A stretch of DNA of 64,000 nucleotides. Origin: an uncultured Clostridia bacterium. GTDB taxonomy: Bacteria > Bacillota > Clostridia > Christensenellales > QALW01. The position numbers and the translations under genes were made by a program. Shown here piece after piece: positions 39,877 through 41,585 of this stretch (position 1 is its first letter; every line of letters begins with the position of its first letter). The stretch is from assembly GCA_934434555.1 (NCBI GenBank), contig CAKRZX010000011.1:3620-67619 (forward strand). The letters are read 5' to 3'. Below the pieces are notes generated by a model. The model was not told where the DNA came from. It ran no database searches and saw only the letters and a list, made by a program, of their open reading frames with translations.

Positions 39877-40569
39877 ATGCAATACTCAAATGAAGTTGAA
39901 GAAATGATGTGTGTTGCAAAGGGCGCTAAACACGAACCCGCTCCTATTCCCGAAGAAGGCAAATGGGTATGTTCCAAAGAAATTAAGGACATTTCCGGTC
40001 TTACTCACGGCATAGGCTGGTGCGCACCTCAGCAGGGCACATGTAAACTTACCCTTAACGTTAAGGACGGTATTATTCAGGAGGCTCTTGTTGAAACAAT
40101 CGGCTGCTCCGGTATGACACATTCTGCGGCTATGGCTGCGGAAATACTTCCGGGCAAAACCGTGCTTGAAGCGCTTAATACTGACCTTGTTTGCGACGCA
40201 ATCAACGTTGCAATGCGCGAACTTTTCCTGCAAATAGCCTACGGCAGAACACAGACTGCGTTCTCCGAGGGAGGACTTCCTATCGGCGCAGGTATGGAGG
40301 ACTTGGGCAAAGGTCTCCGTTCACAGGTAGGTACAATGTACTCAACAGCCGCAAAGGGCGTCAGATACCTTGAAATGGCCGAGGGCTACGTTCTTGAAGA
40401 AGGACTTGACGAAAACGGCGAAGTTATCGGCTACAAGTTTGTTCATTTAGGAAAAATGATGGAGGCTATCAAAAAGGGTGTTGACCCCAAGGAAGCCTAC
40501 GAGAAGAACATCGGTACGTACGGTCGCTTTGCCGATGCCAAAACTTATATCGACCCGAGAAAGAAATAA
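39877..40569 (+). CDS. NifU/IscU-like Fe-S scaffold-domain protein (partner of the GGGtGRT protein)
   Basis: 230 aa from ATG 39877; ..GIGWCAPQQGTCKLTLNVKDGIIQEALVETIGCSGMTHSAAMAAEILPGKTVLEAL.. follows the IscU-like Cys pattern. The track ORF starts at 39706. Confidence 0.7.
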   Translation: MQYSNEVEEMMCVAKGAKHEPAPIPEEGKWVCSKEIKDISGLTHGIGWCAPQQGTCKLTLNVKDGIIQEALVETIGCSGMTHSAAMAAEILPGKTVLEALNTDLVCDAINVAMRELFLQIAYGRTQTAFSEGGLPIGAGMEDLGKGLRSQVGTMYSTAAKGVRYLEMAEGYVLEEGLDENGEVIGYKFVHLGKMMEAIKKGVDPKEAYEKNIGTYGRFADAKTYIDPRKK

Positions 40570-40580
40570 GGAGGACATAG

Positions 40581-41585
40581 ATGATGGCAAATTTCGAAAG
40601 TTATGAGAGAAGAATAGATCAGATCAATGTTGTCCTTAAAGAATACGGTTTTAAGGATCTGGACGAAGCAAAGGAGTTTGCACTTTCAAAGGGTGTTGAC
40701 GCTGAGGCTATCGTAAGGGACACACAGCCCATCGCATTTGAAAATGCTTGCTGGGCTTATACTCTGGGCGCTGCTCTTGCACTTAAAAAGGGCTGCAAAA
40801 CCGCCGCGGAGGCTGCAAAGGAAATCGGTGTAGGCTTACAGGCATTCTGTATTCCCGGCTCCGTTGCCGACCAGCGTAAAGTAGGTCTGGGTCACGGCAA
40901 TCTTGCTTCAATGCTGTTAAGCGAAGAAACAAAGTGCTTCTGCTTCCTTGCAGGTCACGAAAGTTTCGCTGCCGCAGAGGGTGCTATAAAGATCGCTCTT
41001 AACGCAAACAAAGTCCGCAAAGAACCTTTAAGGGTTATCCTTAACGGTCTTGGTAAAGACGCGGCTTATATCATCAGCCGTATCAACGGTTTTACATATG
41101 TTGAAACCAAATACGATTATTATACCGGTAAACTGAACATCGTTTACGAGAAGGCATTTTCAACCGGCGACAGAGCAAAGGTTAAGTGCTACGGTGCCGA
41201 TGATGTTTCAGAGGGCGTTGCAATTATGATTCACGAGGGCGTAGGCGTTTCCATCACCGGTAACTCCACCAATCCCACAAGATTCCAGCACCCCGTTGCA
41301 GGCACTTACAAGAAATGGGCTGTTGAAAACGGCGTTAAGTATTTCTCCGTTGCTTCCGGCGGCGGCACGGGCAGAACACTTCACCCCGATAACGTTGCGG
41401 CAGGTCCCGCATCTTACGGTATGACCGATACTATGGGCCGTATGCATTCCGACGCGCAGTTTGCAGGTTCGTCCTCCGTTCCCGCTCACGTTGAAATGAT
41501 GGGTCTTATCGGCGCGGGCAACAACCCGATGGTAGGCATGAGCGTTGCTGTTGCAGTTGCTTGTGAAGAGGCTATGAAGAAGTAA
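40581..41585 (+). CDS. GGGtGRT-family protein (function unknown)
   Basis: 334 aa containing the eponymous ..VASGGGTGRTLHPDNV.. motif. Confidence 0.8.
   Translation: MMANFESYERRIDQINVVLKEYGFKDLDEAKEFALSKGVDAEAIVRDTQPIAFENACWAYTLGAALALKKGCKTAAEAAKEIGVGLQAFCIPGSVADQRKVGLGHGNLASMLLSEETKCFCFLAGHESFAAAEGAIKIALNANKVRKEPLRVILNGLGKDAAYIISRINGFTYVETKYDYYTGKLNIVYEKAFSTGDRAKVKCYGADDVSEGVAIMIHEGVGVSITGNSTNPTRFQHPVAGTYKKWAVENGVKYFSVASGGGTGRTLHPDNVAAGPASYGMTDTMGRMHSDAQFAGSSSVPAHVEMMGLIGAGNNPMVGMSVAVAVACEEAMKK

Follow-up and report, generated by a model that had tools for sequence, protein, structure and literature searches.

What is the function of a gene pair whose products belong to the most abundant and best-conserved proteins of gut and rumen anaerobes (Bacteroides, Prevotella, Clostridia, Megasphaera, Treponema and Akkermansia)? 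The question is raised here by a 64 000-nucleotide (nt) stretch of DNA from an uncultured Clostridia bacterium (contig CAKRZX010000011.1, positions 3620–67 619, in the following called the window), in which a gene for a remote relative of IscU and NifU_N (gene A) is followed by a gene of the GGGtGRT family (PF14057; gene B). Earlier work has recorded the family and its name as well as the operon pairing and its regulation by iron, and the window holds an ordinary copy. What we add is the strict synteny of the pair, the non-canonical ligand set of A, the lack of a solved structural relative of B, a flat identity of ~78% across phyla and the linkage of a divergent clade to phosphoglycerate mutase genes. 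We consider it probable that the pair is a dedicated heteromeric iron–sulfur (Fe–S; metal-cluster) complex and not a housekeeping scaffold. An earlier note, made by reading the letters of this DNA, had described the two genes with their 11-nt spacing, the motifs WCAP and GCSG in A (residues 48–51 and 76–79) and GGGTGRT in B, all of which we found in place. Its remark that no function is assigned to the GGGtGRT family agrees with the literature up to 2025–26, in which we found no such assignment, and a paper from 2025 calls the role of GGGtGRT unclear.

Conservation of the gene pair

We scanned GTDB with one genome per species and found at least 598 species with a relative of B, the best 80 of which were taken for the locus analysis. 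The labels of these loci name Clostridia, Bacteroidota, Spirochaetota, Actinomycetota, Gammaproteobacteria, Desulfobacterota, Melainabacteria, Elusimicrobia and Planctomycetes. We distinguished a main clade, to which the copy in the window belongs, from a small divergent clade, whose genes are written A′ and B′. At all 78 main-clade loci that hold upstream sequence, A and B share the strand and A lies directly 5′ of B, 8–91 nt apart, and at the six divergent loci A′ lies directly 5′ of B′ and overlaps it (6/6). RefSeq, whose name for the A family is ‘nitrogen-fixing protein NifU’, lists the pair under this name and as ‘GGGtGRT protein’ in records of Parabacteroides and Collinsella. The pairing, whose co-conservation the earlier note had named as a check of its idea, is strictly kept, far beyond what chance would give. 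That A and B are mere neighbours with unrelated functions has next to no probability and is effectively refuted by the synteny, as order, strand and adjacency are kept at every one of these 78 and 6 loci while the other neighbours vary, and as both proteins respond to iron in parallel (see below).

All-against-all clustering of the flanking ORFs revealed no recurrent neighbour in the main clade, and in a Pfam census the 135 nearest flanking ORFs spread over 171 families, of which generic ABC ATPases were the most frequent, at five loci. In the main clade the pair is a self-contained unit. The pckA and His_Phos_1 neighbours found in the window do not recur at other main-clade loci, and we therefore treat them as coincidental. 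At the scanned loci the pair occurs exclusively in anaerobes and facultative anaerobes; its neighbourhoods in Vibrio and Photobacterium offered nothing informative. Plasmid or phage carriage found no support in PLSDB, where the ten records with the gene are all large non-mobilisable replicons or mislabelled chromosome pieces.

The identity between copies is flat. In 80 species 155 of the 333 positions of B are invariant, and pairs of B copies have a median identity of 78% and pairs of A copies one of 76.5%, with values within a class no higher than those between phyla. The two Coriobacteriia copies, for example, are 75% identical and an Eggerthellaceae and a Treponema copy 83%, where the taxonomic labels of metagenome-assembled genomes may be imperfect. 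B of the window shares 75–83% identity with members of many phyla, and identical 333-amino acid (aa) proteins exist in public databases. Homologues of A are 83–100% identical in many Clostridia and 64–84% across phyla. Among the representatives of ~15 billion proteins clustered at 50% identity, the GGGtGRT family amounts to about one cluster plus fragments, frameshifts and chimeras, and one truly divergent full-length lineage was found in this library (54% identity). The flat identity could stem from very strong constraint, from slow evolution that is coupled to high expression, or from horizontal exchange between anaerobes.

Natural A–B fusions were considered and rejected, as the longer ‘homologues’ in the databases proved to be assembly chimeras, internal duplications or frameshifts. 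Seven entries (P0241, P0249, P0273, P0319, P0358, P0363 and P0314) are artefacts of this kind, with an internal duplication, frameshifted translations or an ABC ATPase, Tex-like or SusD-like protein fused to GGGtGRT; they make the family look more diverse than it is. Separately, we observed an A–B spacer of 193 nt in Parabacteroides distasonis NZ_OY725823.1 (L090:4800–4991), inside which RefSeq places a hypothetical protein of 63 aa. Since the spacer in Mucinivorans is just 36 nt long, this small ORF is not general.

Protein A and its putative ligand set

Against Pfam NifU_N, A scored 19.7 bits over residues 57–102 (E 1e-3), which is below the cutoff of 22, and the NCBIfam models NifU_clost, IscU and SufU stayed below their cutoffs as well (26.1 against 187.9, 21.6 against 192.4 and 19.4 against 92.5). 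Using hhalign, a 15-sequence alignment of A matched Escherichia coli IscU with a probability of 90.6% (E 1.3e-6; A 53–100 with IscU 38–86), and a profile of A retrieved from the PDB ~20 IscU, NifU and SufU chains with E-values from 1e-4 to 1e-3, exclusively within residues 43–112. Judged by these comparisons, the remote homology of the A core to IscU is real.

The cysteine pattern, which had been described as IscU-like, departs from that of IscU in most of its positions. Consistently across alignments IscU Cys37 corresponds to Gln53 of A and Asp39 to Ala/Thr55, whereas Cys63 (in G-C-G/S) corresponds to the invariant Cys77 in GCSG and is the ligand retained. The last cysteine, Cys106, stands in LVCDAIN, where Val and not His precedes it, in a segment beyond the confident reach of the tool alignments. 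LPPVK, the HscA chaperone motif of ISC-type scaffolds, is absent from A on direct reading of its sequence. In the 15-sequence alignment, which includes the divergent clade, Cys49, Cys77, Cys106, His44 and Asp107 are invariant. A check set beforehand, the conservation of the cysteine ligands in alignments, turned out in favour of the earlier note, with Cys49, Cys77 and Cys106 invariant and Cys56 kept in 73 of 74 sequences.

We searched all ORFs of ~90 loci for SufS-type cysteine desulfurases and obtained one match, in Collinsella aerofaciens (L091), the sole locus with such an enzyme in its flanks, where a separate SufU stands beside the desulfurase. In the Pfam census of the main-clade flanks no desulfurase family was among the top neighbour families. 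Because a linked desulfurase and the equivalents of IscU Cys37 and Asp39 are missing, the description of A as ‘scaffold-like’, which also conflicts with sub-cutoff scores of all scaffold models, is misleading, and a dedicated cluster-bearing subunit is likelier. On its sequence, A is most simply read as a fixed, dedicated cluster-binding subunit in which an IscU fold would carry an all-protein ligand set, and not as an Fe–S assembly scaffold.

It could be argued that A is nevertheless an atypical scaffold or carrier, and that the pair is an iron or Fe–S reservoir or a dedicated delivery device in which B loads, protects or hands over clusters to abundant Fe–S enzymes. The homology of A to IscU and SufU speaks for this idea. 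We nevertheless hold it to be unlikely, as the pair has neither a cysteine desulfurase nor a chaperone or ATPase linked to it, as the residues of the labile scaffold site (Cys37, Asp39 and His105) and LPPVK are missing in A, and as its four-residue all-protein site suggests a fixed cluster. Moreover, genomes with the pair keep normal SUF genes, and storage proteins are rarely ~78% identical across phyla.

Outside the core, the first ~40 and the last ~120 residues of A gave no family match in Pfam at E ≤ 10. A Gly-rich stretch in the C-terminal part (residues 122–170) contains many invariant residues, yet it is modelled with a predicted local distance difference test (pLDDT) value below 50. The AlphaFold2 model of A is poor as a whole (pLDDT 53.6) because the underlying alignment is shallow (sequences 83–92% identical).

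Protein B and its fold

Protein B matches PF14057 over the whole profile (1–327 of 327; E 1.7e-194, 645.5 bits, cutoff 27). A start at its second ATG (40584) gives a protein of 333 aa, the length of the database homologues, and we use this numbering here. From a 45-sequence alignment AlphaFold2 produced a model with a pLDDT of 87.3 and a predicted template modelling score of 0.89, in which a seven-helix N-terminal domain (residues 7–112) is followed by a Rossmann-like alpha/beta domain (118–257) and by conserved C-terminal loops. The region of the GGGTGRT loop (261–279) is conserved, but its pLDDT is below 50. In the widest alignment five His residues are invariant (H104, H125, H267, H288 and H302), and many Gly, Ser, Thr, Arg, Lys, Asp and Glu residues are retained as well. 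The loops rich in Gly, Ser, Thr and Arg comprise GGGTGRT, ITGNSTNPT, FAGSSSVPAH and GxGNNPxVG. Apart from PF14057, no match of B to a known family was found in Pfam (whole protein and sub-domains, E ≤ 10), NCBIfam or PADLOC, no relative in the PDB by single-sequence and profile searches, and no solved structural relative by a Foldseek search of the model against the PDB.

The beta-strand followed by SGGGTGRT resembles a phosphate-binding loop, and A also matches SufU sulfurtransferases. Together with a rumen study in which the proteins are placed in one co-varying group with cysteine synthase and O-acetylhomoserine thiol-lyase, this would suit a role in sulfur transfer or in the biosynthesis of a thio-cofactor, in which A would be a SufU-like donor of persulfide or cluster sulfur and B would activate the substrate via the SGGGTGRT loop, loosely after the pattern of PP-loop/[4Fe-4S] thiolation enzymes. 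We rate such a role as quite improbable. The canonical PP-loop motif is SGGxDS, which is absent from B, and the loop ends the alpha/beta domain instead of starting it; in addition, no desulfurase is linked, and an abundance at the level of glycolytic enzymes far exceeds the needs of a cofactor pathway.

Two further sets of readings of B were dropped. Prompted by the strings ‘AGHES...’ and ‘SITGNST’ we considered an SIS phosphosugar-binding domain in the central part of B, for which hhalign of the B alignment against E. coli GmhA gave a probability of 0.13%, a weak test in that the template was a lone GmhA sequence. Pfam showed no SIS match in B at E ≤ 10, and Foldseek reached a TM-score of just 0.28 with 3i0z. 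For the motifs, readings as a PP-loop, a CobT-like element, an SCS phosphohistidine loop or a pyruvoyl self-cleavage site were based on resemblance only and found no support in Pfam or Foldseek. In this connection, the antibody recognising GGGtGRT in the 2025 paper is named ‘35K1’; if this name denotes the band size, it would, by our own reading, fit an uncleaved protein of ~35 kDa.

A divergent clade linked to phosphoglycerate mutase genes

The B′ proteins are 51–58% identical to B of the window and 62–79% among themselves, and A′ carries the Cys pattern of A. Their clusters contain ApgM (an archaeal-type cofactor-independent phosphoglycerate mutase scoring above the NCBIfam equivalog cutoff), A′, B′, a membrane-anchored protein C′ and a His_Phos_1 protein. 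ApgM and/or His_Phos_1 accompany A′B′ at each of the six loci, and this linkage with mutase and phosphatase genes persists despite differing gene order and orientation. Further genes are a canonical GpmI at one locus, a HAD phosphatase at another and an XRE-type helix-turn-helix gene at four of the six.

Protein C′ (317–332 aa, with a hydrophobic N-terminus) follows B′ at the six loci and contains the conserved stretches ‘RNLFGF.CVE’, ‘HDW.G.NL’ and ‘PIRV’. It gave no match in Pfam, NCBIfam or PADLOC, and we did not find it in the flanks of the 80 main-clade loci scanned. The context of the divergent clade points to phosphorylated small metabolites around the 3-phosphoglycerate/2-phosphoglycerate node, directly so for this clade only, and these neighbours are the sole contextual clue to the class of substrate.

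Published expression, abundance and phenotype

In Bacteroides thetaiotaomicron the pair is the operon BT0173 (GGGtGRT)–BT0174 (NifU), and in Clostridium pasteurianum it is F502_05012 (GGGtGRT) with the adjacent F502_05017 (NifU-related). According to published data the RNA of BT0173–BT0174 is 11–13 times lower in iron-depleted B. thetaiotaomicron, and in iron excess the C. pasteurianum proteins are 7.1 times (F502_05012) and 2.4–3.7 times (F502_05017) higher. In this iron proteome the pair tracks PFOR, hydrogenase, aconitase and rubrerythrin and runs opposite to flavodoxin. The iron-dependent expression fits a metal-cluster protein. ‘Nitrogen-fixing protein NifU’ makes up 1.5–1.7% of the identified rumen protein, where it ranks with TPI, PGK and FBA, and a high in vivo expression of GGGtGRT is on record for Bacteroides, Blautia, Megamonas, Megasphaera and Succinatimonas. 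When transposon mutants of B. thetaiotaomicron were screened for loss of the inhibition that glucose exerts on the regulator Cur, only three loci emerged: pfkA, the mdpA peptidase operon and BT0173-4.

Part of these data would also suit the storage or delivery of clusters discussed above: the strong repression under iron limitation resembles that of storage proteins, high abundance combined with dispensability in vitro suits a buffer or a stress role better than an essential enzyme, and an indirect effect on Fe–S enzymes could account for the mild glucose-signalling phenotype.

A redox or oxidative/nitrosative-stress protein, which would reduce O2, H2O2, NO or a related molecule or shuttle electrons after the model of rubrerythrin, hybrid-cluster protein or flavodiiron proteins, has to be weighed here as well. 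GGGtGRT is listed alongside rubrerythrins among the proteins highly expressed in vivo, in the iron proteome the pair follows rubrerythrin and desulfoferrodoxin, it is limited to anaerobes and facultative anaerobes, and the many invariant His, Glu and Asp residues of B could form a second metal site. In Parabacteroides its neighbours are TlpA, OsmC and a nitroreductase; this context is anecdotal, however, because these neighbours are not conserved. Since neither protein is similar to any known detoxifying enzyme, and since a stress role leaves the mutase/phosphatase linkage of the divergent clade and the glycine-rich loops of B unexplained, we give this explanation a low probability.

A proposed role for the pair

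We return to the reading as a dedicated Fe–S complex. A and B would be the subunits of one obligate cytoplasmic complex that is abundant in anaerobic fermenters. In A, an adapted IscU fold would hold an Fe–S cluster via Cys49, Cys77 and Cys106, and the fourth ligand would be Cys56 or His44. Assembly scaffolds have a transient 3-Cys/Asp site, from which this fixed one would differ. B would supply the pocket for a substrate or cofactor, with its five invariant His, its conserved acidic residues and its loops of phosphate-binding type. The most likely task of the complex would be to catalyse a high-flux step of sugar fermentation in which a phosphorylated carbon intermediate is converted, at the phosphoglycerate/triose level or close to it. 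Residues 122–170 of A and 261–279 of B, both modelled with low confidence when taken alone, could be regions that become ordered in the complex or around a cofactor. An enzyme activity of the two-subunit Fe–S complex that is tied to sugar-phosphate metabolism seems to us possible rather than probable; two independent pointers link the pair to sugar phosphates, namely the screen that BT0173-4 shares with pfkA and the ApgM and His_Phos_1 genes of the divergent clade. Fe–S binding, the formation of an A–B complex, the enzymatic activity and the nature of the substrate are what we infer here. The co-conservation of the genes, the conserved residues, the remote homology of A to IscU and the lack of other homology are shown, as are, in published work, the dependence of expression on iron and the abundance. 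With regard to the metallocluster-dependent enzyme that the earlier note had suggested, the dependence on iron is in keeping with a metal cluster, while ‘enzyme’ belongs to the part that we infer.

Several observations weigh against this proposal. The position of the first IscU ligand is not conserved in A, so that a Zn site (as in SufU) or a role without a cluster is possible. B has no universally conserved Cys, as the divergent clade lacks C118 and C89, and Foldseek (PDB), hidden Markov model searches and hhalign assigned no specific catalytic fold to it. The phosphoglycerate mutase linkage is confined to one small divergent clade and is absent from the 80 main-clade loci. Furthermore, insertion mutants of BT0173-4 grow like the wild type on glucose, and the Roc effect is modest, only 2-fold; such a weak phenotype is unexpected for a central enzyme with high flux, and it may be an indirect one.

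In its boldest form, which we regard as unlikely, the proposal would make the pair a new class of Fe–S (or mixed Fe–S/His-ligated metal) enzyme, with a catalytic-subunit fold that is absent from the PDB and an unrecognised high-flux reaction of triose phosphate or phosphoglycerate, for example a ferredoxin-linked or dehydratase-type conversion. If true, this would explain why the pair is abundant like a glycolytic enzyme, why its regulation is iron-sparing, why its glucose-signalling phenotype in Bacteroides is pfkA-like and why several types of genes of the phosphoglycerate mutase family and of phosphatases are linked to it in the divergent clade. Whatever the function is, its assignment could fill a gap in anaerobic central metabolism, iron economy or the stress physiology of the microbiome, and would probably also define a new Fe–S protein architecture and a new fold. 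B. thetaiotaomicron BT0173-74 offers a ready genetic system.

The locus and its surroundings

The coordinates of the pair and its signals are listed in Table 1. Genes A and B are a bicistronic unit, each with a strong ribosome-binding site (RBS), and the RBS of B, which directly follows the stop codon of A, is read as a sign of translational coupling. The ‘good promoter’ of the earlier note is present as a site; it is a mere consensus match, however, because such sites are no rarer than chance in this region (4 observed versus 2.8 expected). The terminator that the note had placed 3′ of B was confirmed: its hairpin has a free energy of −22.5 kcal/mol (z = −7.2), none of 200 shuffles was equally stable, and it lies between gene B and the convergent DUF3267 gene. 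In 73 upstream regions an RBS of the GAAAGGAG type was the sole motif enriched 5′ of A, and no common motif besides it was found that could serve as a regulatory element. An Rfam scan of the window found no element near the pair, and the base composition at the pair is unremarkable.

Table 1. Features of the A–B pair and of the divergent-clade loci (positions refer to the window unless a locus is named)
Feature	Position	Strand	Description
Promoter-like site, sigma-70-type	39811–39839	+	TTGCTA-17 nt-TATAAT; 10/12 consensus matches
RBS of gene A	39862–39867	+	AGGAGG, 9 nt 5′ of ATG; read in the sequence
Gene A	39877–40569	+	230 aa; ATG 39877, stop 40567–40569; remote IscU/NifU_N-like protein
IscU-homologous core of A	40003–40191	+	residues ~43–105; hhalign and PDB profile matches
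Cys49 of A	40021–40023	+	invariant
Cys56 of A	40042–40044	+	kept in 73/74 sequences; Ala in the Photobacterium copy
Cys77 of A	40105–40107	+	invariant
Cys106 of A	40192–40194	+	invariant; just past the IscU-homologous core
C-terminal half of A	40204–40566	+	residues 110–230; no Pfam match at E ≤ 10
RBS of gene B	40570–40574	+	GGAGG (AGGAGG-type); abuts the stop codon of gene A
Gene B	40581–41585	+	334 aa from ATG 40581, 11 nt past the stop of gene A; GGGtGRT (PF14057)
GGGTGRT motif	41358–41378	+	residues 259–265 (333-aa numbering); invariant in 45 diverse sequences
Intrinsic terminator	41600–41637	+	11-bp GC-rich stem (41600–41629), 8-nt loop, U-tract
Divergent-clade clusters	L081:3997–8606; L085:2572–8580; L087:391–6859; L092:118–3526; L094:842–6141; L096:301–5405
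Protein C′ genes	L081:7005–7958; L085:6992–7972; L087:2067–3065; L092:1825–2820; L096:3808–4770

The flanking genes, on the opposite strand or convergent, encode a GTP-dependent phosphoenolpyruvate carboxykinase, the undecaprenyl-diphosphatase BacA, a DUF3267 membrane protein and a protein of the histidine phosphatase family; they are housekeeping genes unrelated to the pair. A divergent promoter-like site at 39723–39751 (− strand; TCGACA-17-TATACT, extended TG) overlaps uppP/bacA as given by the longest ORF, which suggests that an internal Met (MNFVLL...) is the true start of uppP and that the promoters stand back to back. Upstream of A in other genera we observed a perfect 7-nt inverted repeat (CTTTGTT-N6-AACAAAG) in Photobacterium aquae (L076:5130–5149) and a CRP-like half-matching site, AAATGTGATAGAGATCTATT, in Vibrio sp. 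THAF191d (L098:6072–6091); they are not common to both genera.

Elsewhere in the window, a 597-aa protein (43206–44999, − strand) has a signal/transmembrane N-terminus, DUF7507/DUF11 repeats, a C-terminal transmembrane segment and a strongly acidic cytoplasmic tail rich in Asp, Glu and Tyr, and is probably a cell-surface repeat protein. Two adjacent ORFs at 45058–45933 (291 aa) and 45986–47029 (347 aa), both on the − strand, have no Pfam match at E ≤ 1e-3. At 36026–36688 (+ strand) a 220-aa protein of the SSB family carries its OB/SSB domain confined to residues 105–194, with an N-terminal extension of ~100 residues.

Comparison with known systems

Compared with IscU, NifU_N and SufU (PF01592; TIGR01999, TIGR03419 and TIGR01994), residues ~43–105 of A correspond to the IscU core with its three beta-strands and the helix of the central Cys, and a further cysteine, C106, would stand at the start of a helix as Cys106 of IscU does. 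Unlike IscU, A has two other cysteines (C49 and C56) flanking the old Cys37 site, an extra N-terminus of ~40 residues and a C-terminal domain of ~120 residues, and it is constantly linked to GGGtGRT and not to a cysteine desulfurase. B of the window is a typical full-length member of the GGGtGRT family (PF14057), and nothing sets this copy apart.

With PFOR, [FeFe]-hydrogenase, rubrerythrin and hybrid-cluster protein the pair shares the direction and size of the iron response and a comparably high abundance, although it is not homologous to any of them. A further analogy is with the L-serine dehydratase of Firmicutes, an oxygen-sensitive hydro-lyase with a [4Fe-4S] cluster and two subunits, SdaAB (~220 aa) and SdaAA (~290 aa). 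As in our pair, a small bicistronic operon encodes two polypeptides of comparable sizes, and the enzyme acts beside the phosphoglycerate/serine node. In contrast, neither A nor B has an SDH_alpha or SDH_beta match in Pfam, and their putative cluster ligands lie on a different fold. L-serine dehydratase serves only to illustrate the way in which a pair of this kind can function.

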